A DNA stretch of 64,000 nucleotides from Flavobacteriales bacterium (GTDB taxonomy: Bacteria > Bacteroidota > Bacteroidia > Flavobacteriales_F > PHOS-HE28). The stretch covers positions 26,729 through 90,728 of the forward strand of contig JADJOG010000047.1 of assembly GCA_016713865.1 (NCBI GenBank), given 5' to 3'. Of this stretch, positions 17,394 to 47,139 are shown one piece after another. The notes beneath the pieces were generated by a model. The model had not been told where the DNA came from. It saw only the letters and a list, made by a program, of their open reading frames with translations, and searched no databases. The first letter of the stretch is position 1. Each line of letters starts with the position of its first letter. The translations under genes were made by a program, and so were the position numbers.

Positions 17394-17837
17394 TCAGCGC
17401 AGTTCGATCCGGCTCTTGCGCTCGAGGTCCGTGAGCGGCTGGAAGCGGAGCAGATGGAAATCGGCTGTGCCGGCCAGCATGCGGATCTCGGATGATGCCC
17501 TGCCGAACTCGCGTCCATCCTGATCCTTGGCGATGGCCATAATCGCCCCTGTGAAATCCTGCTCGGCGATCAAGTACAGCATCAGTCGGTTGTCGCGTCC
17601 TGCGCTGTCTTCCTCGACAACGGTCTTTCCGAGCGAGAGCCCTCGTGCTTTCAGGTCATCAGAAAGCGCCACATCGATGCTCCAGCTCTTCTCGACGCCG
17701 GTGGTCACGCCCTCGATCACCTCTGTAGCAGCTGATCCGGCTATCTCGCCGCCTTTGTTCAGCGCGCTGCGCGTCCCATCGGCCACGCGGCCGCAACCGA
17801 TCAAGGCGGTCGCGGCAAGGAGCAGGACCGGCCTCAT
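17394..17837 (-). CDS. hypothetical lipoprotein
   Basis: LLAATALIGC lipobox. ATGA overlap with the upstream M43 gene (17834..17837). Confidence 0.5.
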   Translation of the reverse strand: MRPVLLLAATALIGCGRVADGTRSALNKGGEIAGSAATEVIEGVTTGVEKSWSIDVALSDDLKARGLSLGKTVVEEDSAGRDNRLMLYLIAEQDFTGAIMAIAKDQDGREFGRASSEIRMLAGTADFHLLRFQPLTDLERKSRIELR

Positions 17838-19888: not shown

Positions 19889-19945
19889 TTCAGATGGGCT
19901 GTTGGCCCGGCTAATCTATGACGCGTCGGAAGAGTCGCGAGGGAA

Positions 19946-22024: not shown

Positions 22025-22209
22025 GGTGTGCTGAGGGGCTGGTTCAGCGCCAAAACTATTCGACTGCCCGAAAGACACGGGTCATGCTCAGGTAACAAGC
22101 CACGCAGGTCTTTGGCTCCTACGTGCGCTGGGAGAAGGAGTGGCACAAGCCCCCCGCCGACAAGCTGTTCACATGGCCCGATGGAGCATGGCTCGGCCCC
22201 GATGAGCGC

Positions 22210-24257
22210 CTAGTGCACCACGAACCGTGCGCTAGCCTCTTGGGTTGCCATCCGCAGGCGCAGAACGTAGGCTCCATTGGCCAAGCCTGCCAGGGGCAGG
22301 CGCCAGCCAGAAGAGGTGAGATCCGCTGCGCGCACCAGCCCCATCGAGATTTCTCGACCAGCGGGATCGATGATCGCCCACTGCGCGCCCGCCCACTCCT
22401 GTGGCAGATCGACCCACGCCTCTGTTCCTGCAGGATTGGGGAATATGTTAATGGCATTGGGCTCCCGCGCCGCTTCATCGATGCCTACCGCCAGCGGTGA
22501 AATGTTGATGTCGTCGAGGTAGAGGTTGTTGCCGCCCATGCTCTCGAACACGAAACGAACCCGGAAGCGCGAGGTGAGCAACGATGCGCCGATGTTGGTG
22601 ATCACGGCTTCTTGCCATTGCTCAGGGCCACTGGGCACGAAGCTTCCGCCTTGCATCGGTCCGGTTACCAGGGTGGTGATCGCGCGGAGCACTTTTCGCA
22701 GCACCCAGGTCTGGCCGCAATCGCCGCTCACATAGACATACAGGGCATCATCATTCGATGGGCTACGGCGGGCGTATGCGTATCGAAAGGAGAGCGCGAC
22801 GGGTCCCGAGCCATTCAGGTTCAAGGTGGAGCTGATCAACTCATCAAAACGGCCTGATGCCTCCGTGGTGTTTATCAGGCGCACCGACCGTGAACCGGTA
22901 AAGGCCGCGGCGCTAGTTGTTTCGAAGCTGTTATCGCCATCTGGATTCTCGGCGCGCCACCAGTCATCAAGATTCTCCGCGCCCTCGAATCCCTCGCTCC
23001 ATGGCAAGGGTGCTCCCGGGTTGGAAAGCACGCGGATGTGGTCGGTTCGTATTTCCGTTATCAACGCGCTTCCGTCTCCAACGCTCAGGCTCACGGGGTA
23101 GCTGCCGGTGCTGTTGTAGGTAATGGTCGGGCTCGTGTTGAATGAGGCTGAAGGTGTGCCGCCCTCGAACGACCAGAAGCGCTGGGTTACTCCGAAGAAG
23201 CTCTCGTCGGTGAACTGCACGGTTGATCCCTCGCACACCTCGCGCCTGTCGCTGCGGAATTGCGCGCGGCAGAGCTGCTCTGGCTCGAGCACGCCGGTGA
23301 GCACGAGATTGGCCGGCTGCCACAAGTTGTTGCGCTGCGCGATGGGCGATGTGAGCGCGGCGACCATGCGGTCGCCCTGACCTTGCGTGAACATCTTGCA
23401 GCAGTACGAATACTCCATATAGTTCTGGACATTGTCCAGCGCGCTGCCGCAACTGGCGCCGCTAAGCGCGCAAGAGGTCCAGCCGCGGGTGAGCGGGGTG
23501 TCGGCTACTTCATCATCCATGAAGCAGTTGTCGTCCGTCCCTGGCTCATTGCTATCGCCCCAGCAATGCTTGAGGTTGAGCCAATGTCCCACTTCATGTG
23601 TGAGCACACGGCTACGGTAGGAGCGCCTGTACCGATGCTGCCCGTGTAGGTGTGCAGGATCACGATACCATCCGCTTGTGGCCAGCCATCGAGCCACCCG
23701 GGTAATAGGTGTAGCCCGCGGCGCCATTGGCACTGGCGGCAACCCATACGTTCATGTACCGGTCTCGCGGCCATTGGATCAGCTGCGTCATCTCCGAAAT
23801 CACCATCGTTGGTCCGTGAGCTCTTCGTGCGGGTGATCCCGTTGGTGCAATTGCCTTGCGGGTCGCGTTTGGCCAAGCGGAATTCCATGCCTGCATCGCC
23901 CACGATGTCGATGAACTCGGGCCTTACGGTGGCCCAGTCGGGGTTCTGCCGGTTGAAGTCGTCGTTCAGGATCCGGATGGCGTCGTATAGCTGCGCGTCG
24001 CTGATGTTCTCCGGCCCATCGTTGTGGACGATGTGGAAGACCACCGGGATGATGTAGCCGCTACCACCACGCTCGAAGCCGTCGAGGCGAGCTTTCAATG
24101 CGGTGCGCGCAGCTTCGGCGCGCGCTAGGGCATCCGGGTTCTCGGCTAGCTGCCGTGCCAGTTGCTCAGGATTATTGGCAAGGCAGCGGAAGCCTTCGTC
24201 TTGCGCGCTGGCATGAACGAAGGGCAGAAGCAGCAGAAGAAGCGTGATCAGGCGCAT
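22210..24257 (-). pseudogene. M43 zinc metallopeptidase with T9SS C-terminal sorting domain, paralog 3, disrupted by at least three frameshifts between about 23600 and 23830
   Basis: The N-terminal part (MRLITLLLLLLPFVHASAQ...IPVVFHIVHNDG) is in ORF 23505..24257. The middle segment QWPRDRYMNVWVAASANGAAGYTYYPG is in ORF 23660..23896. The catalytic HEVGHWLNLKHCWGD site and the C-terminal sorting domain are in ORF 22210..23742. Confidence 0.75.
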
Positions 24258-31017: not shown

Positions 31018-32781
31018 ATGCCCGCCCACCTCGCCAAGCGCTGGCGCCTGAAGCCCGCACCGGAACCCGACGCCGTGGCCGAACTCACCTACGAGCGCTG
31101 CCCGGAATCTGCGGCCACCATCCTGGCCCAACGCGGAATCCGCGACAAGCGCATGGCCGCGCACTTCTTCCGCCCGGCGCTCGACGACCTGCACGACCCT
31201 TTCCTGATGGCCGGCATGCAAGAGGCGGTTGAACGCATCGAGCGCGCCTTGGGCGACAACGAGCGCATGATGGTGTATGGCGACTACGACGTGGATGGCA
31301 CCACCGCCGTATCGCTCGTGTATGGTTCCCTCGCGCGCTTCACCGGCAACCTGCTGTTCTACATCCCGGATCGATATGCCGAAGGCTACGGCATCTCGTT
31401 CCAAGGCATCGATAAGGCCAAGGAAGAAGGCATCACGCTCATCATCGCGCTGGATTGCGGCATCAAGTCCATCGACAAGGTGGCCTATGCCAAGGAGCGC
31501 GGCATCGACTTCATCATTTGCGACCACCACTTGCCGGGCGAGCAACTGCCCGATGCCGTGGCCGTGCTCGACCCCAAGCGCCCCGATTGCCCCTATCCGT
31601 TCAAGGAGCTCAGTGGCTGCGGCATCGGCTTCAAGCTGATGCAAGGCTTCGCGCAGCGCAACAACATCGCCTTCGATGATCTGCTATCGTCGCTGGATCT
31701 GGTGGCCATCAGCACGGCATGCGACATCGTGCCGGTGACCGGTGAGAACCGCATCCTCAGCCATTTCGGCTTGAAGGAGCTGAACGATACCCCACGGCCA
31801 GGTGTGCGCGCCATCCTCGGCATGGCCAACGTGAAGAAGCGCCTCGGCGTGGGCGACCTCGTGTTCAGCATCGGTCCGCGCATCAATGCCGCCGGGCGCA
31901 TCGAGCATGGGCGCAAAGCGGTGGAACTGCTGCTGGCGCACGAGGATCAGCAAGCAGCAGCGGTAGCCACCTTGATCGACGGCAACAACAGCCATCGGCA
32001 GGAGCTCGACCGCAACATGACGGAGGAAGCACTCGCGCACATCGCCGATGATGCTTGGCAGCAAGGCTCTTGGAGCACGGTGGTGTTCAAGCCCGAATGG
32101 CACAAGGGCGTGGTGGGCATCGTGGCCTCGCGCCTGGTAGAGCGGCATTACAAGCCCACCGTGGTGCTCACCGCCAGCAATGGCAAGGCCGTGGGCAGCG
32201 CGCGCAGCGTGAAGGGCTTCGATGTGCATGAGGCCATCAGCGCGTGCAGCGATCTGCTGGATCAGTACGGCGGCCACATGTATGCGGCGGGGCTCACCAT
32301 GCCAGTGGAGAATGTGGAAGCCTTCCGCCAGCGATTCGATGAAGCTGTTCGCGCCACCATCACCGCTGAGCAGCGCGTGCCGGAGGAAGAGGTGGACATC
32401 GAGCTCCGCCTTGATCGGATCGACGAGGGCCTGTTGCGCGTGATCAAGCACATGGCGCCGTATGGTCCAGGAAACATGAGGCCCGTCTTCCTCGCACGCG
32501 GTGTTGTTGATACGGGCAGCGCGCGCCTCGTGGGCGAGCACCATCTGAAGATGCGGCTCGCTCACCCCGACGACCTGCGCCGATCCTTCGATGCCATTGC
32601 CTTTAAGCAAGCCGCTTGGCTCGATCGCGTGAAGAGCGGCCAGCCCTTCAGCGTGCTTTACGCGATCGAAGAGCATGAATGGCAGGGCCGCGTGAGCACG
32701 CAGCTCAATATCAAGGACATCAAATCGGAAGTGGATGGCGTGCTCTTCGGGGAAGAACGCATGGCCGCTGTGAACCAATGA
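31018..32781 (+). CDS. recJ: single-stranded-DNA-specific exonuclease RecJ
   Basis: DHH motifs (VYGDYDVDGTTA, IICDHH) and a DHHA1 domain. Length 587 aa. Confidence 0.9.
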   Translation: MPAHLAKRWRLKPAPEPDAVAELTYERCPESAATILAQRGIRDKRMAAHFFRPALDDLHDPFLMAGMQEAVERIERALGDNERMMVYGDYDVDGTTAVSLVYGSLARFTGNLLFYIPDRYAEGYGISFQGIDKAKEEGITLIIALDCGIKSIDKVAYAKERGIDFIICDHHLPGEQLPDAVAVLDPKRPDCPYPFKELSGCGIGFKLMQGFAQRNNIAFDDLLSSLDLVAISTACDIVPVTGENRILSHFGLKELNDTPRPGVRAILGMANVKKRLGVGDLVFSIGPRINAAGRIEHGRKAVELLLAHEDQQAAAVATLIDGNNSHRQELDRNMTEEALAHIADDAWQQGSWSTVVFKPEWHKGVVGIVASRLVERHYKPTVVLTASNGKAVGSARSVKGFDVHEAISACSDLLDQYGGHMYAAGLTMPVENVEAFRQRFDEAVRATITAEQRVPEEEVDIELRLDRIDEGLLRVIKHMAPYGPGNMRPVFLARGVVDTGSARLVGEHHLKMRLAHPDDLRRSFDAIAFKQAAWLDRVKSGQPFSVLYAIEEHEWQGRVSTQLNIKDIKSEVDGVLFGEERMAAVNQ

Positions 32782-34349
32782 AACCTGATCGCATGAAGAA
32801 GCATCTCATCGCTTTTGCGGCTTTGCTGCCCTTTGCCGCCTCAGCCCAGTCGCCAACTTGGAGCGACGATGTGGCGTGCATCGTGTACTCGCACTGCACC
32901 GCATGCCACCACGATGGAGGTCCTGCGCACTTCAGCCTGACCACGTATGTGGATGCCTATTGGTGGCGCAATGAGATGCGTGCCGCGACGCAGGCCAAGC
33001 TGATGCCACCCTGGCCAGCAGATGAAGCCTATCGCCCGCTGGCGCACGAGCGGCTCCTTTCGCAGGATGAGATCGACATCATTGCCGCATGGGTGGACGG
33101 TGGCGCCCCCGAGGGCAATGCGCAGAATGCCCCAGCGGCACCGGAGTACTCGAGCGAGGCCGTGATCACGAATCCCGATATCACCGCCATCATGGATGAT
33201 TACGTCATCCCTTCTTCAACCTCCGACAACTACCGGTGCTTCGTGCTGCCCATCAACAACCCCGCGAACTCCTGGATCACGGGCCTTGAAGTGGTGCCCG
33301 GCAACCGCGAGATGGTGCATCACGTGCTCGTGTTCCAGGACGCCACCGGACAGGCGCAGCAATTGGATGCGCAGGATCCGGCGCCCGGCTATTCCGGTTT
33401 CGGTGGCATCGGCGTACCCAGCGCCAAGCTGATTGGGATGTGGGTGCCGGGGTCGGAGCCGTACTTCACCCCGCAAGGAATGGGAATCAAGTTGCTCGCG
33501 AACGCGGACATCGTGATTCAGGTGCATTACCCGGCCACGAGTTCGGTGCAACTCGATAGCACTCGGGTGAACATCCGTTTGGGCACAGCGCCCTTCATGC
33601 GCGAGTTGGCCATCGATGCCATCCTTCAGCATAGCAATATGACCAACGGCCCGCTCGTGATCCCGGCCAATCAGGTGCGCACCTTCAATCAGCAGTACAC
33701 AGTTCCGATCAATGCCACCATCACCGCCATCGGCCCGCATGGCCATCTGATCTGCCGAAGCTTGAAGAGCTGGGCGGTGAAGCCCAGCGGCGAAGTGGTC
33801 CCGTTGATCGACATCCCGCAATGGGATTTCCGTTGGCAGGACCTGTACTCCTTCCGCAATCCCATCTTCTTGCCCAGCGGAACCGTGATCCACAGCGAAG
33901 GCGTTTACGACAATACCAGCGCGAACCCCAACAACCCGAGCAGTCCGCCGCAGCTGGTCACTGCCGGCGAGGCCACCACCGATGAGATGTTCCTCTTCTT
34001 CTTCGCATGGACGCCCGGCCTCGCCAGCGATGAAGCGATCGTGATCGATGACGGTGCGCACCCTGAGCATCACCTCGGCTGCGAGACCAGCTTCTCGGTC
34101 GGAGTGATTGATGTGGTCGCAGCGCCGTTGCGGATCGTACCGAATCCGGCTGCTGAGCGCATCACCATTTCCGGCGCGACTGGATCGATTATCCGCATGC
34201 TCGACGCAACAGGTCGCGTGGTGCACACGGCATCACTCACGATGCAAGAAGAGGTCATCGATGTGGCCGCATTGCGACGCGGGCCCTACATCGTGGAGCT
34301 GCTGCATCGCGATGGAACGAATCAGCGCGCCACTGTGGTGCTTGAATGA
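32778..34349 (+). CDS. secreted cytochrome c domain fused to a copper type II monooxygenase-like (PHM/DBH fold) domain, with T9SS C-terminal sorting domain
   Basis: Signal peptide (MKPDRMKKHLIAFAALLPFAASAQ; alternative start 32793). CTACH heme motif plus MPPWPAD. PHM-like ligand pattern: HHVLVF, QVHYP, PHGHLI, DEMFLFF. C-terminal ...GPYIVELLHRDGTNQRATVVLE. Confidence 0.55.
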   Translation: MKPDRMKKHLIAFAALLPFAASAQSPTWSDDVACIVYSHCTACHHDGGPAHFSLTTYVDAYWWRNEMRAATQAKLMPPWPADEAYRPLAHERLLSQDEIDIIAAWVDGGAPEGNAQNAPAAPEYSSEAVITNPDITAIMDDYVIPSSTSDNYRCFVLPINNPANSWITGLEVVPGNREMVHHVLVFQDATGQAQQLDAQDPAPGYSGFGGIGVPSAKLIGMWVPGSEPYFTPQGMGIKLLANADIVIQVHYPATSSVQLDSTRVNIRLGTAPFMRELAIDAILQHSNMTNGPLVIPANQVRTFNQQYTVPINATITAIGPHGHLICRSLKSWAVKPSGEVVPLIDIPQWDFRWQDLYSFRNPIFLPSGTVIHSEGVYDNTSANPNNPSSPPQLVTAGEATTDEMFLFFFAWTPGLASDEAIVIDDGAHPEHHLGCETSFSVGVIDVVAAPLRIVPNPAAERITISGATGSIIRMLDATGRVVHTASLTMQEEVIDVAALRRGPYIVELLHRDGTNQRATVVLE

Positions 34350-34842: not shown

Positions 34843-35733
34843 ATGAAACGAATCGCGACACTTCCGCTCATGTGTGCATTGATTCATCCGGGTTCGGCGC
34901 AAGTGGTGGGTGAGTTCCTCGAGATGAATTTCGAGTCGGGCGCCACCCTGGTCCTGGACAGTGTTTATCCAGCAGGTTGCTGGCAAGTGGGGAGACCTGC
35001 GAAAACTCTGTTCACCACCGCGCTCAGCCTTCCAAACGCGCTTGTCACGGACACACTGCTTCCTTATCCGTCTTTCACCACGTGCTATGCTGAGTTCACA
35101 CTCTTAGCTGATGAGTCCTCAAATGATTATGGTCGCTGGTTCGAGTTCGATCATTGGTTGGACCTCGCTCCGGGCAGTAGGGCCTACATAGAGGCCCGCG
35201 ACACCTGGTCTTCCGATTGGTCAAGGTTGAACGACGGCTGGTATGCGGAGGGAAGCGTGATCAATGGACCCCAGGGTTATGAATTCGCGGGCAGCACAGG
35301 CGCATGGGAGCATGTAGCCTTCGACTCGCCTTGCGGCGGTGTGATGCAAGCGACAGCCGATCGATGGTATGACCCGTTGATGCGGCTTAGGTTCGTGCTT
35401 GAAGCAGGCGATAACGGTAGCGGCCGCGATGGCTGGATGATCGATGACTTTCGTGCCACGGCTACCATTTGCGCGGGCGGCCTTACGGAACACAGGGTCA
35501 GCGGCTTGAAGATCTACCCGAACCCAGCGAATGACAGGGTGCTCATTCAGTTTCATGGCAATCCCGGTCCGTCGACAGTGCAAGTGATCCGTAGCGATGG
35601 CGCTATAGTCGCGGTGACTACCGTGCAAGGCGATCGAATCGGCTTGAGCGTTGATGAATTGCCATCAGGGCCCTATCTGATACGTTCCATCGGTAGCATG
35701 CCAAAGCAGGCCATGCTCCTCATTCAGCGTTGA
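34843..35733 (+). CDS. hypothetical secreted protein with T9SS C-terminal sorting domain
   Basis: Signal peptide MKRIATLPLMCALIHPGSAQ. C-terminal KIYPNPANDRVLIQF...GPYLIRSIGSMPKQAMLLIQR. Confidence 0.6.
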   Translation: MKRIATLPLMCALIHPGSAQVVGEFLEMNFESGATLVLDSVYPAGCWQVGRPAKTLFTTALSLPNALVTDTLLPYPSFTTCYAEFTLLADESSNDYGRWFEFDHWLDLAPGSRAYIEARDTWSSDWSRLNDGWYAEGSVINGPQGYEFAGSTGAWEHVAFDSPCGGVMQATADRWYDPLMRLRFVLEAGDNGSGRDGWMIDDFRATATICAGGLTEHRVSGLKIYPNPANDRVLIQFHGNPGPSTVQVIRSDGAIVAVTTVQGDRIGLSVDELPSGPYLIRSIGSMPKQAMLLIQR

Positions 35734-35746
35734 GGCCAAAGCCGCT

Positions 35747-38700
35747 TCACGGCAATTGCTGCGTCCTTGTATTCGTCGGAACGCTTCCGCCAACATTCAC
35801 GAGAATTGGATCGCGGTCGTTGTTCTCCCCGGTGTAGCGGAAGATGCCATCCATGTTCACGTCGGCTTGGTGATAGCCCGGCGCGCTCAAAGCCGTTGGC
35901 ACGTTGCCGCCAATGCTCAACAGGATGGGATCGCGGTCATTGTCCTCACCGGTGTAGCGCAGGATGCCATCGCGAGAAACATCACCGCTCCAGAGCAGCG
36001 CCTTGCCATCGCGCAGCCGACGGGCATCGGTCCCGTGCATGCTGAGCGCAGGGTTCGAGAAGTCGATGCTCGCTGGGGTCGTGCTCAATGCTTGCGGGGC
36101 CGCAGTCATTGCTCCCAGATGATTCCGGTGCTTCACGGCGATTCGGTAATTACCATTTCCGGCGCGGAAGCTTACAGGCGAATCTCCGTCGATGTCAACC
36201 ACATCGCCATCGCGCTGCAGCAGTGCTGAGCGAGTGGCAAGCACGGTTGACGGCGAGGTGGCATCGCGCAATTCGAGCATCACCCAATCGACAATGGCAT
36301 TATTGCCCGATTGGACGAGCACGGCAGGCGCCACGGTCTCGCCGCCGCCGAAGTACTGCTGGAAGCCAAGTCCGGTGTAGGGCTCGGTCGAAGGGATGTG
36401 GGAGCCGCTGCGCAAGGCATCGCTCATGATGTCCGTGACCTCATCATAAGGACCATCGAGCAAGAGCTTCAGGGCCACGCGCACGCCATTGCGCTCGATC
36501 ACCACATCGTCGAGGTGCAGCCAGTTGCCATAGCCATTGATATTCACGAAGCGCACGATCACTTGCTGGCCGTCGAAAGCGCTTAGGTCATCATCGTGCT
36601 GCTGCCATTGACTGCAGGCGGTTGGTGTCCAGGCTGAGGTGACATATCCTGTGGTTTGCAGGGCCGCACCCGTGGCCTGGAATGTGGTGGTCCAAGTGAG
36701 CCCGCAATCGCCGCTGACCTCCACGCGCATGCCATCGGGGTAAGCAGAGCTATAGCCGCTGTAGGCGTGCTTGTATTTGAGGCGCGTGCCAGCCGATCCA
36801 CTCAGGTCTATTCGCGGGGTAACCAAGCGATCTTCTTGGCCCGGGGCGCTTACGGAGTAGTTATCGATGCCCCAGACGCGCGCGCCTACGCAAGACTCTT
36901 GGGCGGAAACAGCACGGGTCACCCATGTGGTGCCGTTGTCGGGATTCTCGAGTAACCAGCCCGCAGGGATCGGCGGGGTGCTTTCAACATTCGTGGTATA
37001 GGTCGATGCAGCACTGGATGGAGTAGTGAGGGTGATGCTCGATGCAGCTGCGTCATTCGGGACGTACTGATCCCCCGCAAGATTCGTCCGTGCCGTCACG
37101 GTATGTGGCCCATCGCCTGTGATGGTGAGTGTTTGCGCGAAGGTGTAATCGGCAGAGGCGCCTGCAGCGAGTGTCCCGGCGTAGGCGGCCAGCACCTCGG
37201 AGCCTCCATCGAGCTGATAACGCAGCTCGAAATTCGATTGTGGCTGCTGACCGAAGTTTCCGCACGCGAACAACGACTGGGAGATTGCTTGCCGCGCAGT
37301 TGAAGAGGTTTCCGCTGGGCGATAGCACTTGAGCGATGCCCACGTTGTTGGCCACGGGCATGTCGAAGGCCTCGCTCTGATCCGAGCGGCTGGTGGAGAG
37401 CCCTTGACTGGCGCTTGCTCCCAAGCCGCGGCGCGCGAAGGCTGCCCAGATCGCGGTCTGGTTAGCACCGCCGTAAAGTGCTTGATCGGCGGCGAGTATC
37501 GCGTCACGACCATCAACGAATCCTGGATTGCAGGGTGTGAGCTTCAGGCCTTCAATCACCAGTCGCATGGCGATGTTGTTGCCGCCGGTGCCATTGTAAA
37601 TGTCCGGGTCCCAGCCGTAGATGCCGATCAGCTCCCAGGTCATCTCCCAGAGCATGGTACACCACACGAAACCGATGCCATGCGGCTGGCTCAATCCACT
37701 ATTGGTGCTTGCATAGGTGTAGTTGTTAACGCCGAAGCTGGTGCTGTAACGAGCCGGGCGGATGCCCGCACCCGTGGTAGGCTGGCCGAGCACATAGGTG
37801 CCTACGCCACGACCGGTTGAACCGGTATCACCTGCGCGTATCGTCATAACGATGCCGAAATAGTCGCTCCAGCCCTCACCCATTTGCTCAGCGTTGCCCA
37901 AGCAGCTCGTGTTCGCCGGACCGCCAACGAGGCGGTTGCTGATGCCGTGGCCGTACTCATGCGCGATGATCCCATTATCCAGGTCACTGTCGCGGTTGGG
38001 CGTGGTATAGGTCCACCGATACATCTGCATCCGTGGATTGCTGCCATCGGGTGGAGTGCCGAAATTGGCGTTGTTGGTGCCGCTGCCATCCTGCGCATCT
38101 GCATCAACGGGGTCGCTGCCGACGCCGCCGCGGCCGTAGTTGTTCTCTTGGAAGTTGCCGGCCGGGTCATTGAAGCCATACTGGTACCACACGTCGTGCA
38201 TCAAGTTGTTCCAGTAGAAGAGGTTGGTGGTGGCGGCGGGCAGGTAGGTCGAAGGCGCCTGTGCGAAATCAATCGGGAAGTCGAAGTCGAGCGTTGCGCC
38301 GCCATCTGGTCGCGTGCCACCGGTGTTGTTGGCATCGGCATCTTCTTGCGCGAAGCAGTTGTTGCCGCGCGTATCCGAGAACTCTGCACCTGCTACACCA
38401 TTGGTGTCGTGCCAGCCATAGGGCGAAGCGGTGCCGCCATCGAGCCAAGGGGCGTTGCTCAGTGTGCGCGGGCCGTGGCTCGGACTCTCCAAAGGCCAAT
38501 CGAACACGTTGTATTCGTTGGGTGCGGCGGGAGCAAGTTCCTCTTCAGGCGAATGATCGGTGCAGCCATGATGTGTGTGGTCATCCCAGTTGCATTGCGC
38601 TACCCAGTCGTTGCGGTCCAGCTCTTCACCGGTGATGGCATCGACGCGCACGTTCCACCAATGCGAGCCATCGGGCGTGTAATGGTTCACGTTCCAGGCC

Positions 38701-39212
38701 AAGCGCAAGGCATCGCCTTTGGGCTGGAACACGAGCTGGGCTATTATGGGCTCGTTTCCGAAAGCGCTGCCATCGAAGATCGCTTTGCGCCCTTCATCCT
38801 CTGCGCTCATCAGCTGCGGTGCGCTCTTATCGGGCAGGTTGCGTGCAATCACCAAGGCCACGGCGGCTTCGGCTGTAAGCACGGGTTCGGTAGCGTTCGC
38901 GCGTTTCCCGATGCCGGTGAAAGCGCCCACGTTCAACTTGAGCAATTCGCCATCTGGACGGAGATGCATAGCGATGTCGCCATTCCACACCTCGATGCCT
39001 TGCCAGCGCTGACGCAGGTACAAGTGACGGATCCCGCTTCCTTCCGAACGGTAATCGTCCTCGATCAGTAGATCCTTCAGGTCGCTTGCATGAAAGCCGT
39101 CAAGCAACAGAAGCTGCTCGGTTTTCGCTGGCAAGGGAGTTGAGCTCTGGGCAGAAACGCAGTTCGCTGAAAATACGAGGGCAATGAGGGCGAGGGTCGG
39201 CTTGTGTATCAT
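35747..39212 (-). pseudogene. M36 (fungalysin-like) zinc metalloprotease, copy 1: FTP propeptide, M36 catalytic domain, shared middle domain and a dockerin-like C-terminal module. One frameshift near 37300.
   Basis: Signal peptide MIHKPTLALIALVFSANCVSAQ. HEYGHGISNRL (HEXXH) in ORF 37053..39212. The continuation in ORF 35747..37516 includes D-x-N-x-D-G loops (DVNMDGIFRYTGENNDRDPIL). There is no classic T9SS CTD. Confidence 0.75.
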
Positions 39213-39282
39213 GGGGATGGGCGCAAAATAGAAGGAACGCCTATGCCCGTTTTTTCACGAAACCTGCAGAATGAGGATTCCT

Positions 39283-42200
39283 TCACTCGGAAACCACGAG
39301 GCGCTCCACGCCGAAGGCGCCATCGGGCCCAATGCGCAGGAAATACACGCCGGGTACTGGACGGCGCAGCGCGAGTCGCACAAGGCCCTCTGCCCCGGTA
39401 TCGACGCTCATCGGGACAATCTGCCCTAAGGCATCACGCAGTTCGATCGGCGTGCCGGGCTCCGGTAGCAGAAGTGTGAACTGGCCATTGCCCGGGTTCG
39501 GGAATGCCCGTTGGCCTTGATGGCCACGCTTCATGCTAACCATATCCGAGATCTCCTCGGATCCATCGATGTCGATCATGCGCAAGCGATAGAAGCTGGT
39601 GCCCGCTAGCGGCGCGGGATCGAGCAGTGCGTAATTCGAGAGCATCAGCGATTGGCCGCGCGCTTCCATGCGGCCAATGGCGGTCCAAGCGCTTGCATCA
39701 CGCGAGCGCTGCACCTCGAAATGGCTGCTGCCGCTCTCACTGGCCGTGCTCCATTCCAACAGCACGCCGTCAGCCACCTCGCGGCCTTTGAAAGAGAGCA
39801 GCTCCACTGGAAGTGAAGAGGATCCCGTGAACTGCACATTGTCTAGATACAAGGTGTTGCCGTAGCCATTGATGCCTACGAAGCGCACGAGCACGGTCTG
39901 CCCGTCATAGGCGCTGATGTCGAGATTGTTGGCCCTCCACTGCGCGCAAGCACCCGGGGTATACACTCCAGTGTTATCCGGTGCGGTGGCAAGCGCGGCT
40001 CCGCTCTGGTTCAGCAAGGTCACCCAGTTGCCGCCGCAGCTGCCGCTGATTTCAACGCGGAAACCATCGAAAAGCGAGGCATTGTACCTGGCATAGGCGT
40101 TGTCGAATCGGAGACGGGTGCTGCTGAGGCTCACGAGGTTCACGAGCGGTGTAATCAAGCGGTCTTCCTGTCCTATGCCGTTATAGTTGAAGTTGTCGAT
40201 GTACCAAGCGCGCGATGAGGTGCACGAAGGCCCGGGGCCGATTGCCGGAACGATTGTGCTCCAGGTGTAAGCATTGTCAGGGTTCTGAAGCGACCATCCG
40301 GCAGGCGTTGGCGAAGCGGCAGAAAGGCCCTCGCTGTATGGCGCCATCACGGTTGTGCCAGCCGTAACGGTGATTGATTGTGATTGGGCATTGTCCACGG
40401 CGTACATGTCGCCGGTGAGGTTGGTCTCCACCTCCAAAGTGTGCGTGCCCGCCGAAGGTGGAGTGAAGGGTGTGGCGAACGTGACGGTGACGGACGCACC
40501 AGAAGCCAGAGGGCCCGGTACATTCTGCGTTACCCATGCGCCGCCGTTCAAACGGTAACGAACCGGGAAATTGCTCTGTGAATTGGTTCCGAAGTTGCGC
40601 ACCACTGCACGCACGGTTACAGGAGAGGACGGGCAGAGGTAGAAGGCGGTTCCGGGCTCCGTGATGCTGGATACGCCAACATTGGTGGGTACTGGCGAGC
40701 TGTACGATTCCACCTGATCAGTACGGCTGCCCGCAGTGCCCTGGCTGGCACCGCTGCCCAAGCCGCGCCGGGCGAAAGCGGCCCAAAGCGCCGTGTTGTT
40801 GGCGCCGCCATACAGGTTCTGATCAGCGAGCAGGATGGCATCGCGGCCCTGCACGAAACCGGGATTGCATGGCGTGAGCTTCATGGCTTCAATCACTAAG
40901 CGCAATGCCCGATTGTTGCCGCCGTTGCCGTTGTAGATGTCGGGGTCGAAGCCGTGGATGCCAATCAGCTCCCAAGTCATTTCCCACAGGATGGTGCACC
41001 ACACGAAGCCCATTCCGTGCGGCACGGTGAGGGCTGTATTGTTCGTGCTTGCATAGGTGTAATTATTCACCCCGAAGTTGGTGCTGTATGGAGCGGGCCT
41101 GATGCCGCCGCCCGTTGCTGGCTGCCCCACCACGTAGGTGCCGATGCCGCGTGGCATAGGACCCGTATCACCGGTCTTCATCGTGAGCATGAGCGCTAAG
41201 TAGTCGCTCCAGCCTTCGCCCATCTGCTCAGCATTGGTCAGGCAGTTCACATTCGCTGGACCGCCTACGAGTCGATTGCTCACGCCATGACCATATTCAT
41301 GTGCGATCACGCCATTGTCCAGATCGCTCGTGCGATTGGGCGTGGTGTAGGTCCACACGTACATCTGCATGCGTGGACGTGTGCCTTCGGCGGGCGTGGC
41401 GAAGTTGGCGTTGTTGGTGCCGCTGCCATCGAGCGCATCGGCCAGCACATAATCGTTGCCGGTGCCGCCACGGCCGTAATTGTTCTGCTGGAAGTTGCCC
41501 GACGGATCATTGAATCCGTAGCCGTAGAGCACATCATGCACGGTGTTGTTCCAGTAGTAGAGATTGGTGATGAGGGCGCTTTGATAGGTGTTAGGCGCAT
41601 TGGCCAGATTGATCGGGAAGTCGAAGTCGAGCGTAGCGCCGCCATCGGGAGCGGCCGATCGTGGTCTCATTGTCGTTGGCGATATCCTCCTTCGCCCAAA
41701 CGTTGTTGCCTCGGGTTGTCGTGTACTCCGCGCCCGCAGCGCCATTCGTGTCCTGCCATCCGAAAGGCGATGCGATCCCGCCCAGAGTCCAAGGCGCATT
41801 GCGCAGGGAGCGCGCTCCGTGCGAAGGGCTCTCGACAGGCAAGCCGTACACATTGAAATCGTTCGGAGCCGCCGGCATCATCGATGCGTCCTCCGGGTGC
41901 GCGCAGTCGTGGTCGTTATGCGGGTGATCCCACGTGCAGGAACTCACCCAATCGTTGCGGTCGAGCTCCTCGCCGGTCATGGCGTCGATCCGTACGTTCC
42001 ACCAATGGCTGCCATCAGGCGTGTAATGGTTCACGTTCCAAGCAAGCCGCAAGCGGTCATCAACGGGTTGATAAACGAGCTGTGCGAAGGGCGATTCATC
42101 GCTGAAGCCTGTTGCATCGAAACGGATCAAACGCCCGCCATCCAATGATTCGATGATCGCAGGGGTCGCGACCCCTGGAAGATTCTCTGCAAGCACGCTG

Positions 42201-42556
42201 GACAAAGCGGAGGTCGCGCTGATCGCAGGTGTTGTCGCGTTCACGCGTTCGGGCAACCGATTGAACGCTCCGATGTGCGCTTCAACGACGCTGCCATCCG
42301 CACGTTGATGTATCGCGATGTCGCCATTCCACACCTCGATGCCTTGCCAACGCTGCCGGATGTAGTTGTGAGTGAGGCCAAGTGTTTCCGAATCGTAACG
42401 ATCCTTAATGATCACATCCTGCAGGTCGGCGTCAATCAGATCGGCTTTCGCCAACCGGGATTGAATTGAGCCGAGCAATGAGGCAGCATCGTCCTGCGCA
42501 TGCCCGAAGGAAACGCTGGTGACCAGAACGAGTGCGACTAAGAATCTCAGGATCAT
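39283..42556 (-). pseudogene. M36 (fungalysin-like) zinc metalloprotease, copy 2, with T9SS C-terminal sorting domain. One frameshift near 41650.
   Basis: Signal peptide MILRFLVALVLVTSVSFGHAQ (ORF 41591..42613). HEYGHGVSNRL in ORF 39283..41853. C-terminal ...VYFLRIGPDGAFGVERLVVSE. Confidence 0.75.
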
Positions 42557-42719
42557 GGCATTTGCGGGATCGAAAATAGGGGCACGCCGCACATTCAACA
42601 ATAGCCCCTGCAATCGGTTCGATTGGGTCCTTGGCCCCTCTGCGAGGCTACATTTGGACCGCCGTTAAGAACGCCGTGCTTCGCAAACGCCTCTCAACGA
42701 GGACCAAATAGACAGATTC

Positions 42720-43130
42720 ATGTACCCCCCCGAACTCACCGCCCCTATGGCCATGGACCTGGTGTCCGCTGGCTTCGAAGAACTGAAAACACCCGAACAG
42801 GTTGATAAGGCCCTGAGCCAGCCCGGCACCGTGCTCTGCGTGGTTAATAGCGTTTGCGGTTGCGCCGCAGGAGCAGCTCGCCCCGGTGCCAAGCATAGCC
42901 TGCGCGGAGCTAAACGCCCAGATAAGATGGTCACGGTTTTCGCTGGCGTGGATACTGACGCCGTGATCCGTGCGCGCCAGCATTTCCTGCCTTACCCGCC
43001 GAGCAGCCCGAGCATGGCGCTTTTCAAGGATGGCAAGCTGGTCCACTTCCTGGAGCGCCACCACATTGAGGGCCGTACGGCCGAGATGATCGCCGATAAT
43101 TTAGCGATGGCTTACGAGGAGTTCTGCTAG
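42720..43130 (+). CDS. bacilliredoxin (BrxA/BrxB, YphP/YqiW family, DUF1094)
   Basis: VVNSVCGCAAG active-site motif and SSPSMAL, collinear with Bacillus YphP. Confidence 0.8.
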   Translation: MYPPELTAPMAMDLVSAGFEELKTPEQVDKALSQPGTVLCVVNSVCGCAAGAARPGAKHSLRGAKRPDKMVTVFAGVDTDAVIRARQHFLPYPPSSPSMALFKDGKLVHFLERHHIEGRTAEMIADNLAMAYEEFC

Positions 43131-43146
43131 TCGCGAAACAATTCTT

Positions 43147-43190
43147 GCACGAGCGCCCCGGCACAATGCCGGGGCGCTCGTGTTTCGGTT
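43147..43190. terminator. bidirectional intrinsic terminator between convergent genes
   Basis: GCACGAGCGCCCCGGC-acaat-GCCGGGGCGCTCGTG followed by TTTCGGTT. Confidence 0.6.
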
Positions 43191-43215
43191 CCCGCTCACG
43201 GCAATTGTTCGGTCC

Positions 43216-46200
43216 TCACATTCGTCGGCACATTGCCGCCGATGTTCCTAGGATCGGGTCGCGGTCGTTGCTGTTGCCGGTGTACTTCACACTCCCGTCA
43301 AGGTTCACATCCTCGATCCGGTAGCCGGTGATGCTAGCTGTTGGCACGCTGCCGCCGATCGCGGTGAGGATCGGGTCGCGGTCATTGAATTCGCCCGTGT
43401 ACTTGAGCAGCGCATCGCGCAGCACATTCCCGCTCCAAAGCGTGCGAATGGACCCAACGATGCGTGTAGGCTCGGTGCCGTGCAGCGCGAGCGCAGTACT
43501 GGTGAAGTCGATTGCGGTTGAAGCGGTGGTGAGCGCGTAACCCGTGCTCGTCATGGCGCCCAAGTGGTTGCGGTGGCGCACAGCGATGCGGTATGTCCCG
43601 CCCGGAGCGAGCAGCGCAATGGGTGATACGCCATCCTCCGCCACAACATCGCCATCGCGCTGCACAAGCGCCGGGCGCGTGGCCATGATGGTGCTAGGCG
43701 TTGCATTGCTGCGAAGCTCAACCAGCACCCAATCAACGATCGCGTCGCCGCCTGTTCGTGGCAACACACCAGCTTGTATGATCTCGCCGCCGCCATCACT
43801 CGCCTGCGTGAAGCCGAGTGATGTGTATGGTTCCGCATTCGGGATTAATGATGTCGAACGCAGGTTGTCGCGCATGAGTCCAGTGTTGTCGTCATAGGCG
43901 CCATCGAGCATCAGTTTCAGCGCGAGTCGCATGCCTTGGTTCACCACCTCGATGTTGTCGAGATAAAGGCGGTCGCCGTCGCCATTCACACCGGTGAATC
44001 GGATCACCGCGCTCTGTCCGTCATATGCACTGATGTCGAGGTCGTGCAGCATCCATTGGTTGGCTGCCGTGGGCGCCCAAGGGTTCGAGCCTGTGGTCGA
44101 AGTGCCCAACGCGGCCGCTTGCGCGTAGTAAAGCTGCGTCCAGCTTTGCCCGCAATTGGTGCTGATCTCCACGCGCAGGCCATCAGGATAGCTGGCGCCA
44201 TAGGGCTTGTAGGCATGATGGAAGCGCAAACGGGTTCCTGCGCTGCCGCCGAGGGTGATAACTGGTGTTATCAGCCGGTCCTGCTGACCTGGGGCGTTGT
44301 AGTAGTAATAGTCCATGCGCCATGCGCGTGTGGCAGCGCCGGTTGGGCCAGTCACGCTCACGTTGGTCCATGTGTCGAGGCCATCGGCATTCTCCAAGCG
44401 CCAGCCCGTGGGCGTGACTGCCTGGTTCTCTGCATCGGCAAGCAGCGGTGCGTTCGCTGTGAAGTTGGCGTAGGTAATGAAGGAGTTTAGTGTCTTCGTA
44501 CTGGTTCCGTTCGCATCGGTGACGGTGAGTGTGACATCGTACACGCCCGGCGCGCTGTAGGTGACGAGCGGACTGCGATTGTTGCTGGTCGATGGCGATC
44601 CGCCGGGGAAGCTCCAGATCCACGAGTAGCCGTTACCGCTGAGCACGCTGTTATCATAGAACTGCACGCTGGGCGCGAGGCAGGTGATCGTGGTCTTGTC
44701 AGAGCAGAAGTTGGCGACAGGTTGACTGGCGGTTTCCAGCGCACTCTCCCAAACGCTGCGGTCTGTGCCGTTGCGGATCTTCTGGTCGCGGTAATTGATC
44801 AAGAGCTTCGTGCTGAAGATCTTCGCGGGAAGACCCGTGTTCCATAGCGCCCATGCAGGTGCTGCATCGCTGCGGTAGAACACGGCTCGTCGCGTGCCGA
44901 TGTAGAGCCCGCCGTTCGTTCCAAGTTGGTGCGCGATGTTGGTGGGCCACTCGTTGTTCAGGTTGGCGTCGGTGATGTTGGTCCAGTTCGCTCCGCCATT
45001 GGTGCTGCGGAAAACCACGTATCCGTTGATGTTGGGATAATCCCCGTACTGGCTGGTGCGCACGAGCCAGATGGTCTGTGGATCGGTGGCGCTGACGGCG
45101 ATGTCGTAAGGCACCCACGTGTTGCCATTGATGGTTCCGCTGCTCGGGGTGATGTTCGTCCAATTCGCACCGCCATTGGTGCTGCGCCAAACCTTCTTTT
45201 CGCCCCACCAGTCGATATAGGTGCATGCGTACAACGTGTTCGGGTCGCTGAAGCTCACTTCGATGCTGGTCACGTACTCGCCGAAATCGTACACCTGCGT
45301 GAAGCCCGCGCCATTGTCGTCTGTCCGCCAGATGGCCGTTCCATTGCCCACGAAGGCAGTGTTCACCAAGTTGGGGTGCCACACGATTTCGCTGCTGTGG
45401 CCAGTGATGTAGTCGGCGTTCGGCTGGCGGCTCCAGTTCGCGTTGCCGTTGCTCACGTTGCGATCGCCGCTCAAGGTCTTGTAGCCGTAATCGCTCAGCG
45501 CGCGGCGGTCGTATTGAGGATGCACGAAGCCGCGTAGGCCATCGCCGCCGTCGGTGCTTACCCATCCGTTGGTGTACACGTTGTTGTCCTTGAGCAAGGT
45601 GCCGTTGTGGTAGGTGCCGCCCAGCATCACGTTGCTGCCGGTCCATCCGCCAGCGCCGAAGCCCCAGAAGTCGGTGCCCGCAATGCCGAACATGCGCCGC
45701 TGGAAGTTGGCGCCGCCATCGCTGCTGTAGAAGATGCCGCCGTCGTTGGCCACCCATACCTCGTTGCCGTAGTAGCGGATGTCGTGGATGTCGGCATGCA
45801 CGTAATCCACCTTGTTGCTATGGCTCCACTTCGCCGGACACGTGAAGGTGACGCCGCCGTCGGTGCTCACCCACCGGTTCACTGCGCCCACTTGAAGTTT
45901 GTTCGCGTTGGTGGGGTCAACATCGAAGGCGAGATCGTAGTAGTACTGCCCACCATCGTCAAGCCCTTGGTCATCCCAGCCCATCAGGTTGCGGTTGCTG
46001 GCCGATGGCGCGCCGCCGGGCTGAGGGCCGCAGCATGTGAAGGACCAAGTACTTCCGCTATCGGTGCTCTTGTAGATGCCGTACAGTCCCGTGCCGCCAT
46101 TCACTTCGCCAGTGCACAGCGCGTACACGTTGTTGGGCGCTGCGGCGCTCACGGCGATCTCGGTGCGCTTTTGCTCTTCCGGGCTAACGGGCAGTGGCCA

Positions 46201-47139
46201 GCCGGTTCCAACTTGCGTGAAGCTCACACCGTTATTGGTGCTGCGCCAGAACTCGGTTCGATTGCTCACCTGCTTGATGGCGTACACCGTGTTCATGTCG
46301 CCGGGCTTGAACTCCAGTTCTTGCCAGATTCCGGGTTGCACCTGCGTGAAGGACGCGCCTGCATTCGTGCTTCGGTACAAACCCTGATTGCTGATCACGA
46401 AGAGGATCTGATTGTTGGTGGGGTGCAGCACGATATCGCGGATGGTGTGGCTCACGCTGGTGAATGGCGATCCGCCGATCACGGCCCAGTTGGCGCCGCC
46501 ATCGGTGGTCTTGTACAAGCTGCCCGCTCCGCCGAACCAGGCCGTGTTCTGCACCGTGTTATCCAGTTCAACGCTCAGCACTTCGCCCACCATCATGGCC
46601 TTGGTCACGTTCGTCCAGTTGAGGCCCTTGTCGGTGCTCATCCACACGCCAGCGTTGGCGGTGCCTGCGTAGAGCAGATTCGCGTTCACCATGCTCTGCT
46701 CAACGGTGTACACGTGCGCCGCGCCGCAGGCGTAGCTCTTGTCCACCGCACCATGATCCCAGTCGAAGGGGCCGATGCAGGTCCAGTTGGCCGTGCGATC
46801 GCCGCTTGCCGATGCCGCGAGGTATTGCCCGAGACTCTCTTCATAGTCTTCGCGTTGCGCCACGTCGCGCGGAATAATGTTGTGACCGACCTCGCGCTTC
46901 CAACGCTTGAAGTATTGCGTGTGCGCGTTCTTCACGAAGGGATGCGTGGCGTAGTAGGCATCGTAGGCCGCTTGCACCGCGCCGGCATCGGCATCTGGGG
47001 CATACATCAGCTGCGCCCATTGGGGCAGATCGGTTCCATGAGCGGGAACGAGCTGCTCGCTGCGCTGGGCATACAGGAGGCCGTGCAGAACAAGGCTAAG
47101 TGAAGGAAGAAGGAACGCATGCGTGCAGGTTTGGCGCAA
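43216..47139 (-). CDS. large secreted BNR/Asp-box repeat protein (sortilin/VPS10-like beta-propellers) with shared middle domain and dockerin-like C-terminal module
   Basis: Signal peptide. At least nine S-x-D-x-G-x-x-W/F Asp-box motifs (STDGGANW, KSTDSGSTW, ...). C-terminal 230 aa about 60% identical to the tail of M36 copy 1. Length 1307 aa, uninterrupted. Confidence 0.75.
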   Translation of the reverse strand: MRQTCTHAFLLPSLSLVLHGLLYAQRSEQLVPAHGTDLPQWAQLMYAPDADAGAVQAAYDAYYATHPFVKNAHTQYFKRWKREVGHNIIPRDVAQREDYEESLGQYLAASASGDRTANWTCIGPFDWDHGAVDKSYACGAAHVYTVEQSMVNANLLYAGTANAGVWMSTDKGLNWTNVTKAMMVGEVLSVELDNTVQNTAWFGGAGSLYKTTDGGANWAVIGGSPFTSVSHTIRDIVLHPTNNQILFVISNQGLYRSTNAGASFTQVQPGIWQELEFKPGDMNTVYAIKQVSNRTEFWRSTNNGVSFTQVGTGWPLPVSPEEQKRTEIAVSAAAPNNVYALCTGEVNGGTGLYGIYKSTDSGSTWSFTCCGPQPGGAPSASNRNLMGWDDQGLDDGGQYYYDLAFDVDPTNANKLQVGAVNRWVSTDGGVTFTCPAKWSHSNKVDYVHADIHDIRYYGNEVWVANDGGIFYSSDGGANFQRRMFGIAGTDFWGFGAGGWTGSNVMLGGTYHNGTLLKDNNVYTNGWVSTDGGDGLRGFVHPQYDRRALSDYGYKTLSGDRNVSNGNANWSRQPNADYITGHSSEIVWHPNLVNTAFVGNGTAIWRTDDNGAGFTQVYDFGEYVTSIEVSFSDPNTLYACTYIDWWGEKKVWRSTNGGANWTNITPSSGTINGNTWVPYDIAVSATDPQTIWLVRTSQYGDYPNINGYVVFRSTNGGANWTNITDANLNNEWPTNIAHQLGTNGGLYIGTRRAVFYRSDAAPAWALWNTGLPAKIFSTKLLINYRDQKIRNGTDRSVWESALETASQPVANFCSDKTTITCLAPSVQFYDNSVLSGNGYSWIWSFPGGSPSTSNNRSPLVTYSAPGVYDVTLTVTDANGTSTKTLNSFITYANFTANAPLLADAENQAVTPTGWRLENADGLDTWTNVSVTGPTGAATRAWRMDYYYYNAPGQQDRLITPVITLGGSAGTRLRFHHAYKPYGASYPDGLRVEISTNCGQSWTQLYYAQAAALGTSTTGSNPWAPTAANQWMLHDLDISAYDGQSAVIRFTGVNGDGDRLYLDNIEVVNQGMRLALKLMLDGAYDDNTGLMRDNLRSTSLIPNAEPYTSLGFTQASDGGGEIIQAGVLPRTGGDAIVDWVLVELRSNATPSTIMATRPALVQRDGDVVAEDGVSPIALLAPGGTYRIAVRHRNHLGAMTSTGYALTTASTAIDFTSTALALHGTEPTRIVGSIRTLWSGNVLRDALLKYTGEFNDRDPILTAIGGSVPTASITGYRIEDVNLDGSVKYTGNSNDRDPILGTSAAMCRRM

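Follow-up and report, generated by a model that had tools for sequence, protein, structure and literature searches.

The locus described here raises the question of why one of two neighbouring secreted proteases carries another module in place of a C-terminal sorting domain, and what that module does. It lies in a 64,000-nucleotide stretch of DNA (the window) from a Flavobacteriales bacterium (assembly GCA_016713865.1, contig JADJOG010000047.1). The region analysed, positions 35747..47139, contains three tandem genes, all on the minus strand, that encode two paralogous M36 metalloproteases (M36-1 and M36-2) and a BNR/sortilin-Vps10-like protein (the BNR protein). M36-1 and the BNR protein end in a common tail, and M36-2 terminates in a C-terminal sorting domain (CTD) of type A, belonging to the T9SS (type IX secretion system). 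The tail defines a very large family with a near-constant extreme C-terminal position on proteins that combine a Sec signal peptide with T9SS-type cargo. We read it, with a probability of about one half, as a docking module composed of a divergent X-module and a dockerin-like part (an XDoc-like dyad), which would attach its cargo non-covalently to cohesin modules.

Sequence comparisons showed that the last 244 residues of M36-1 (35750..36481) and residues 1071–1297 of the BNR protein share 59% identity over 228 residues (E 9e-84). An original prediction for this region, made from the DNA sequence alone, had described two collinear tails of ~60% identity; the likeness and every quoted motif were found again, and the estimated length of ~230 residues is corrected to 244. 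After frame correction, the tail of the BNR protein comprises residues 1071–1314 (43199..43929) and ends in ...NIGGNVPTNVRTEQLP. The frame-corrected M36-1 and M36-2 are collinear over residues 1–903 and 1–908 with 57.7% identity, and their likeness ends with a choice-of-anchor J domain. Residues 741–1154 of M36-1 and 902–1314 of the BNR protein, which correspond to choice-of-anchor J plus tail, share 53.7% identity, and the match between M36-2 and the BNR protein is confined to the choice-of-anchor J domain (44% identity). All three choice-of-anchor J domains score above the NF038128 cut-off of 30 bits, with 38.1 bits in M36-1 (36497..36994, 38–40 bits; the last part in common with M36-2), 36.6 bits in M36-2 and 50.4 bits in the BNR protein (43945..44439, segment scanned alone).

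Downstream of choice-of-anchor J, M36-1 continues with the tail, M36-2 with an Ig-like spacer and the type A CTD, and the BNR protein with the tail. The CTD of M36-2 (39286..39504) matches TIGR04183 with 26.3 bits (26–27 bits in the feature list) against a cut-off of 23, and PF18962 weakly. The predicted switch of M36-2 from a common middle domain to a type A CTD is thus confirmed by this match and by the collinearity. The tail had been thought to sit where choice-of-anchor domains occur in other proteins; however, the preceding domain is itself choice-of-anchor J, and therefore the tail occupies the anchor slot rather than the choice-of-anchor slot. These comparisons support an interchangeable C-terminal module that replaces the type A CTD exactly after choice-of-anchor J. 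NF038113, the equivalog of T9SS-dependent M36 proteases, is the top family for both paralogues, with 775.6 bits for M36-1 and 757 bits for M36-2, both below the cut-off of 885.

Domain searches matched the tail to nothing in Pfam, NCBIfam 20.0 (E ≤ 1) or the PDB sequences. The literature on dockerins and X-dockerins in Bacteroidota or Flavobacteria, on new CTD classes and on choice-of-anchor domains yielded no description of the module. A word-indexed search returned 1,244 relatives with 52–69% identity, all from uncultured Flavobacteriales or metagenomes and annotated at best as 'hypothetical protein'. Run against 1.84 billion representatives (50% identity), a family profile matched 13,238 proteins at E ≤ 1e-3, a count that may be inflated by some upstream columns in the search profile, and 4,626 at E ≤ 1e-30. 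Of the 150 best among these 13,238 matches, 147 run to the final residue of the protein. Most members that reach the end of the model terminate exactly there (262 of 279), usually in EQLP, QQLP or AQLP. Nearly all copies end in (E/Q)Q(L/I)P, and distant members keep a ...Q-(L/I)-P ending with 0–3 extra residues.

A scan of GTDB species genomes found at least 80 tail loci, all from Bacteroidota among the matches listed, where Flavobacteriales, Saprospiraceae, Chitinophagaceae/Ferruginibacter and Spirosomataceae are represented and Spirosoma panaciterrae, S. oryzae and Fibrella aquatilis are the cultured carriers. Tail genes often form tandem clusters, with up to four within 12.7 kb. The carriers have ordinary Sec signal peptides and a wide range of passenger domains, including DUF5122 propellers, S8, reprolysin, M36 and M64 peptidases, GEVED, LTD, PKD, GBD_T9SS_assoc, Kelch and MAM, which are typical of T9SS cargo. 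The claim of an interchangeable module in the original prediction is supported by the CTD exchange after choice-of-anchor J together with the C-terminal recurrence of the tail on secreted proteins that are unrelated and number in the thousands.

Rare internal copies of the tail occur in giant proteins of Saprospiraceae (L037, L072, L078 and L079). In L037 (6001–8280), SprB repeats and then a Por_Secre_tail domain (38.5 bits) come after the module, and other internal copies (the L072, L078 and L079 group) precede TSP3, Disaggr_repeat and CBM96 domains. L031, a further candidate, was rejected as probably two tandem tail genes run together. Since the L037 protein has its own type A CTD, its tail module is a passenger of a type A substrate and presumably functions outside the cell. 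Many small tail proteins of 300–430 residues were also observed (P0021, P0068, P0101, P0139 and L062 5479–6780). In these, a signal peptide and several short 'SNIFSGGNGRGD(V/A)A' or 'LYQGGSGDGFA' repeats without a Pfam family precede the tail.

The AlphaFold2 model of the tail, calculated from 96 sequences, has a predicted local distance difference test score (pLDDT) of 93.9 and a predicted template-modelling score (pTM) of 0.91. In the model, residues 1–163 (35993..36481 in M36-1) form a β-sandwich resembling an X-module or a transthyretin-like domain, and residues 164–244 (35750..35992) form two duplicated dockerin-like loop-helix repeats followed by a terminal strand. The immunoglobulin (Ig)-like, X-module-type domain lies immediately N-terminal to the dockerin-like part and packs against the repeats, which is the arrangement of the XDoc fold. 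The repeat helices span residues 184–189 and 223–229, and those in the model of a Thiothrix member, P0382 (see below), have 10 residues. Foldseek comparisons showed that six of the top seven matches are type II XDoc chains (4u3s_B, 4wi0_B, 2b59_B, 3kcp_A, 4fl4_C and 5g5d_B), with a target-normalised TM-score of 0.31–0.58, a probability of up to 0.96 and weak E-values of 0.01–0.1. Dyads of an X-module and a type II dockerin are the top matches in two independent fold searches. The predicted fold is thus closest to type II XDoc, with a dockerin-like part that is an internal duplication. As judged from the models, the likeness is moderate but specific and spans both subdomains.

The β-sandwich contains the motifs LKLLLDGPY, IVDWVxxELR, QRDGD and HRNHLG, and an invariant or near-invariant polar-aromatic cluster (D65, W66, R72, Q89, R90, D91, G92, D93, H118, R119, N120 and H121). 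These tail residues (65–66, 72, 89–93 and 118–121) correspond to ~36119..36289 of the window. The cluster (DW, R, QRDGD and HRNH) could be a ligand site or an interface with the dockerin-like part. If it were a ligand site, the tail might be a binding or adhesion module without a protein partner, directed at a surface glycan, lipopolysaccharide, exopolysaccharide or floc matrix, in which the sandwich would provide the site and the repeats a calcium-stabilised cap. The cluster has no X-module counterpart, secreted enzymes commonly carry C-terminal binding modules, the tail can sit mid-protein in giant adhesin-like proteins beside CBM96 and TSP3 repeats, and most tail loci have no nearby cohesin. 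However, searches with the whole-tail fold pick XDoc and no carbohydrate-binding module, cohesin fusion or adjacency recurs in three lineages, and the conserved residues could equally form the contact between X-module and dockerin. We consider such a ligand-binding role improbable, somewhat more so than the sorting-signal alternative discussed below.

The repeats themselves add sequence features to the docking interpretation. Averaged over 96 members, repeat 1 (tail residues 166–196) and repeat 2 (206–236) share 66% identity, and the tail thus shows the tandem duplication of a loop-helix (F-hand) segment that characterises dockerins. The repeats of M36-1 read (G/E)D-V-x-x-D-G-x-h-K-Y-T-G-x-x-N-D-R-D-P-I-L and are followed by the terminal strand ...VPTNTRTQQLP. 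The consensus of repeat 2 is D-V-N-(M/L)-D-G-x-V-K-Y-T-G-x-x-N-D-R-D-P-I-L. Its loop has D at position 1 in 96 of 96 members, N at position 3 in 83, D or N at position 5 in 93 and G at position 6 in 86; the Y, the G and the N-D-R-D that precedes the helix are invariant. In repeat 2 the D-x-N-x-D-G start is present, and the acidic end, the invariant N-D-R-D, is displaced by six residues towards the C-terminus relative to the canonical 12-residue EF-hand-like calcium loop (D-x-[ND]-x-[DN]-G-x-x-x-x-x-D); in repeat 1, position 3 varies. The loop of repeat 2 may be a canonical D-x-N-x-D-G...N-x-x-D loop into which a six-residue Y-x-G hairpin has been inserted.

In dockerins, a C-terminal Pro or Tyr and an aromatic residue at position -1 or -2 of a conserved glycine (G0) form an intramolecular clasp (PMC3821032). 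By sequence position, the equivalents in the tail are W164 at -2 (92 of 96 members), G166 as G0 (96 of 96) and the last residue, P244 (96 of 96). Such a putative clasp would explain structurally why the QLP end is conserved. An alignment of the family profile with the CipA XDoc by hhalign (the sequence used is identical to 2b59_B) gave a single match, LLWSGDVSRDGILRYT against MMWVGDIVKDNSINLL, in which the aligned 20-mer is the equivalent junction from the X-module to the first calcium loop. This match was set aside as evidence of homology at a probability of 8.8%.

In several lineages the tail family is linked physically and genomically to Pfam cohesin modules. P0154 (L085) and its orthologue in L086 (61–75% identical) start with a signal peptide and three Cohesin domains (PF00963, ~60 bits vs. 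a cut-off of 24.1), continue with Big_2 and a linker rich in Cys, and end in the tail, which is a CipA-type scaffoldin architecture. P0138 is a fragment of a protein of the same kind. The linker between the last cohesin and the tail has the pattern GNTCGxxGCMNxxACNYxxxALCDDGTCAF (residues ~566–600 of P0154 and ~115–150 of P0138). The gene just upstream in both L085 and L086 encodes Beta_helix, Dockerin_1, Cohesin and Por_Secre_tail domains, and its product is thus a cohesin-bearing T9SS type A substrate. Its Dockerin_1 domain scores 32.6 and 25.6 bits in the two loci against a cut-off of 22.9. Because canonical Dockerin_1 coexists with the tail in these loci, the two are distinct module types in these bacteria. 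The gene pair is conserved in metagenome contigs of Flavobacteriales type (L085 2–4686, L086 3–5943 and L087), a cellulosome-like layout in Bacteroidota, and a DUF5723 protein is encoded two genes downstream of it in L086 and L087. In the metagenome scan, only two loci with the pair were found, orthologous to L085. In Chitinophagaceae (L063 and L068), the gene immediately upstream of a tail gene encodes three Cohesin domains (88 bits), and a gene for a type A CTD protein follows.

The tail also occurs outside the Bacteroidota. P0382 from the gammaproteobacterium Thiothrix fructosivorans (GCA_017349355.1; L081 8001–11044) combines a cohesin-like fold with the tail. It is encoded on a chromosomal contig of 1.94 Mb with proteobacterial-looking neighbours. 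Six related cluster representatives have the same N-domain plus tail, and the same protein is present on 21 contigs of the collection. The cohesin-fold matches of P0382 come from its N-domain, since a search with the tail only gave no cohesins; the pLDDT of the N-domain model is only 60–90, and as the homologue search for this domain gave only three matches, the alignment was deepened with further proteins of the family. The neighbouring gene encodes a Lysyl_endopep_N/trypsin-like protease that ends in a canonical F-hand, DVDNDGKAAAPKDAALLMRYLLGL (Dockerin_1, E 0.22). The Thiothrix module looks like a horizontal transfer out of Bacteroidota.

The same distribution bears on the alternative of a fourth class of signal for T9SS export or sorting, either the tail itself or a part of it, which the translocon or a shuttle protein would read and which would bring the cargo across the outer membrane where a CTD of type A, B or C otherwise does so. 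The original prediction had allowed for such an unrecognised variant signal. The exchange of tail and type A CTD between two paralogues that both score best on NF038113 would fit this reading, as would the place of the tail in the anchor slot, the Sec signal peptides and T9SS-typical domains of the carriers, the Bacteroidota origin of all genome loci listed, the extreme C-terminal position, where a Q-(L/I/V)-P ending is conserved, and the fact that no other outer-membrane route is recognisable in the carriers. However, nothing positive was found beyond position and cargo. A type A CTD is an Ig-like sandwich of ~70–100 residues at the extreme C-terminus that matches a hidden Markov model, and the tail matches neither that model nor any other in NCBIfam or Pfam. 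NCBIfam presumably also holds a model of the type C CTD (ChiA type, cl41395). No type B (TIGR04131) or type C match was found in NCBIfam 20.0 at E ≤ 1, and no PorP/SprF-like gene, whose co-occurrence the original prediction had proposed as a check, is a conserved neighbour in 80 loci. The review literature describes CTD types A, B and C only, and T9SS CTD proteins are restricted to Bacteroidota (PMC10202324). The tail, with its Thiothrix members, does not share this restriction. The internal copies also speak against a T9SS signal, most tellingly the one in L037, a protein that ends in its own Por_Secre_tail. The clasp would moreover account structurally for the terminal Pro. Together, the Thiothrix members and the internal copies weaken the T9SS-signal reading, which we regard as unlikely, although it and the docking reading are compatible with each other.

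In the docking reading, the β-sandwich of residues 1–163 would carry the two loop-helix repeats packed on it, with the C-terminal strand closing the structure and the invariant proline as the last residue, and the tail would act as a plug for protein–protein docking that is probably calcium-stabilised. Secreted cargo such as the M36 protease and the BNR/sortilin-PKD protein would be held non-covalently by cohesin modules on scaffold or anchor proteins of the cell surface. Some of these might themselves be T9SS type A substrates, taking the anchor role of the clostridial SLH proteins. XDoc anchors scaffoldins to the cell surface (PMC6487960), and T9SS type A substrates are covalently linked to anionic lipopolysaccharide (A-LPS; PMC9143113). 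The two M36 paralogues would then differ in attachment, M36-2 being attached or released via the CTD pathway and M36-1 being plugged into a scaffold. Calcium binding, cohesin binding, a partner in the source genome, surface location and the crossing of the outer membrane are the steps of this scheme that we infer.

Several observations weigh against docking. At the sequence level, Pfam (2025) contains no family for either tail at E ≤ 10, Dockerin_1 included, a family-profile search of the PDB sequences gave no match at E ≤ 10, and the hhalign match to the CipA XDoc is not significant. The putative calcium loops have 18 residues instead of 12, position 3 of repeat 1 is variable and an invariant Arg lies inside each loop, so that calcium binding is uncertain. 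The DW/QRDGD/HRNH cluster has no counterpart in X-modules. In the genomes, jackhmmer searches with cohesin modules found no cohesin in the window, and most of 85 related loci contain none either. All-against-all clustering of the open reading frames (ORFs) in the flanks of 80 loci gave no recurrent partner gene and no PorP/SprF-like neighbour; the apparent conserved neighbours were rejected as antisense shadow ORFs or other repeat-rich surface proteins. Whereas XDoc sits on scaffoldins in cellulosomes, ~98% of the carriers here are enzymes or adhesin-like proteins; the tail follows cohesin or cohesin-like modules in scaffoldin style in P0154, its L086 orthologue, P0138 and the Thiothrix P0382 group, and not in the proteins of the window. 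Finally, docking does not explain how the cargo crosses the outer membrane. Of the original prediction, the term 'dockerin-like' thus gains from the predicted fold and from the cohesin linkage in relatives, but it finds no sequence-level match in Pfam or the PDB.

Comparison with known systems places the tail nearest to XDoc. The XDocs of C. thermocellum CipA (2b59, 3kcp and 5g5d) and A. cellulolyticus ScaA (4u3s and 4wi0) are the best structural match over both subdomains. They have in common with the tail the extreme C-terminal position, a β-sandwich directly before a duplicated loop-helix module and a W-x-G-D junction motif, and some tail-family members carry the tail after several cohesins, as CipA does. 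However, there is no detectable sequence homology, and the tail is longer (244 residues vs. ~160). Its loops contain the inserted Y-x-G hairpin and the invariant NDRD, its sandwich has the conserved polar cluster, it is mostly found on enzymes and adhesin-like proteins rather than scaffoldins, and its hosts are diderm Bacteroidota and Thiothrix instead of Firmicutes. With type I dockerins (PF00404), the tail shares the character of a C-terminal, duplicated and putatively calcium-dependent docking module, with terminal residues that fit a clasp by sequence position, that is appended to many different secreted enzymes of one genome. However, PF00404 is silent on the tail, and the tail has an obligatory N-terminal β-sandwich. 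These comparisons support, at the level of fold and context, a dockerin-like reading in which the tail is a very large, unannotated variant of dockerin or XDoc that has no Pfam or NCBIfam model.

The T9SS CTDs of type A (TIGR04183/PF18962), type B (TIGR04131) and type C (ChiA type) resemble the tail in position, in the kinds of cargo and in their restriction to nearly the same phylum, and type A is interchangeable with it between the M36 paralogues. However, the tail is about three times longer, has another predicted fold and no model match, and occurs in a bacterium without T9SS (Thiothrix) and inside a protein with its own type A CTD. The sorting-signal-dependent M36 proteases (NF038113, T9SS-dependent; NF038111, rhombosortase-dependent; NF038112, myxosortase-dependent) likewise combine an M36 body, choice-of-anchor J and a lineage-specific C-terminal module, but the module of M36-1 is none of the three known signals.

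For the T9SS, CTDs of three classes and attachment in two ways, covalently to A-LPS or via PorP-like partners, are currently recognised, and cohesin–dockerin assembly is regarded as mainly a theme of Firmicutes and cellulosomes. Against this background, the tail family suggests that Bacteroidota may have a third, non-covalent means of arranging secreted enzymes at the surface. Its representatives at 50% identity number ~13,000, its predicted fold is confident, and Spirosoma, Fibrella and Runella include cultured carriers. More tentatively, environmental Bacteroidota (Flavobacteriales, Chitinophagales and Cytophagales) might possess a large, unrecognised surface assembly of cohesin–dockerin type, in which thousands of secreted proteases, propellers and adhesins carry the tail instead of a CTD and plug into T9SS-anchored cohesin scaffolds; their export might proceed by piggy-back on the scaffold or by the tail doubling as a new class of T9SS signal. 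We regard this wider proposal as possible but doubtful. The family also makes it possible to ask by experiment how T9SS-like cargo without any CTD leaves the cell. With a profile of the tail, 'hypothetical' proteins by the thousand from metagenomes of wastewater, soil and the sea could be annotated at their C-termini, and the prediction of secretomes would improve.

The gene models behind these comparisons required correction. ORF reading showed that each of the three genes changes frame in the raw window through a one-base frameshift, so that no single ORF covers it, which the original prediction had overlooked. M36-1, a fungalysin-type M36 metalloprotease (35747..39212; reconstructed length, 1154 residues; Peptidase_M36, E 1.4e-144), is split into two overlapping ORFs (37053..39212 and 35747..37516), with the shift at ~37258 caused by an extra A in cgg-aaa-ctt. 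The corrected protein comprises a signal peptide, an FTP propeptide, Peptidase_M36, a CARDB-like region, choice-of-anchor J and the tail. M36-2 (39283..42556; 1091 residues), whose body and choice-of-anchor J are arranged as in M36-1, is reconstructed from the ORFs 41591..42613 and 39283..41853, with one shift at ~41650 within a C run. The BNR protein (43196..47139; 1314 residues) comprises a signal peptide, a sortilin/BNR propeller, PKD, choice-of-anchor J and the tail. Its raw ORF stops early after ...DPILGTSAAMCRRM, and the frameshift hides the last 17 codons; a one-base correction at ~43247 gives the ending ...DPILxNIGGNVPTNVRTEQLP with the true stop codon at 43196..43198.

These frameshifts bear on the alternative that the tail has no role in sorting or anchoring and is a periplasmic or intramolecular, chaperone-like pro-domain whose carriers remain in the periplasm or are inactive pseudogenes. 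The disruption of all three window genes and the lack of a recognisable outer-membrane export signal in tail proteins would be consistent with it. However, intact orthologues are present in L001, L002 and L009, and the syntenic L001 (Flavobacteriales metagenome-assembled genome HK-STAS-BACT-57) encodes an intact M36-1 orthologue of 1152 residues. A fourth gene in the window (22210..24257) is also frameshifted. In total, at least four genes of the window carry frameshifts, and two of the shifts lie in homopolymer runs. Because this fourth gene is also affected and the L001 orthologue is intact, assembly indel errors are more likely than pseudogenes; the pseudogene interpretation was rejected on the grounds of the intact orthologues and of the same type of single-base shift in other genes of the window. 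The very large size and strong conservation of the family, its typically extracellular cargo and the position of the L037 copy within a T9SS substrate argue further against a tail without a sorting or anchoring role, which we consider very improbable, more so than the other alternatives. The shifts suggest that the source assembly is indel-prone, of long-read type, and that gene calls from this contig will be fragmented.

Other features of the window lie beside these genes. A perfect GC-rich hairpin (cgagcgccccgg...ccggggcgctcg) at 43150..43180 on the minus strand, just past the corrected stop codon of the BNR gene, is likely a transcription terminator. Three tandem paralogues at 17834..24257 (minus strand) have the order metzincin (BF0631-like), PKD, a choice-of-anchor J-like domain and, last, a T9SS CTD of type A. 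In both scanned copies this CTD was confirmed with NCBIfam, and the third copy, which is frameshifted, was read by eye only. The choice-of-anchor J match is sub-threshold in one scanned copy (24 bits vs. a cut-off of 30) and unreported in the other. They form a second protease family in the window with a choice-of-anchor J-like slot ahead of the anchor. The succession of choice-of-anchor J and CTD thus recurs in the source genome, and T9SS substrates are clearly present in the organism. Directly upstream of M36-1, on the plus strand, lie the genes of two further proteins with a type A CTD (32679..34349 and 34843..35733), the first with a CxxCH-like motif (CTACHH) near its N-terminus.

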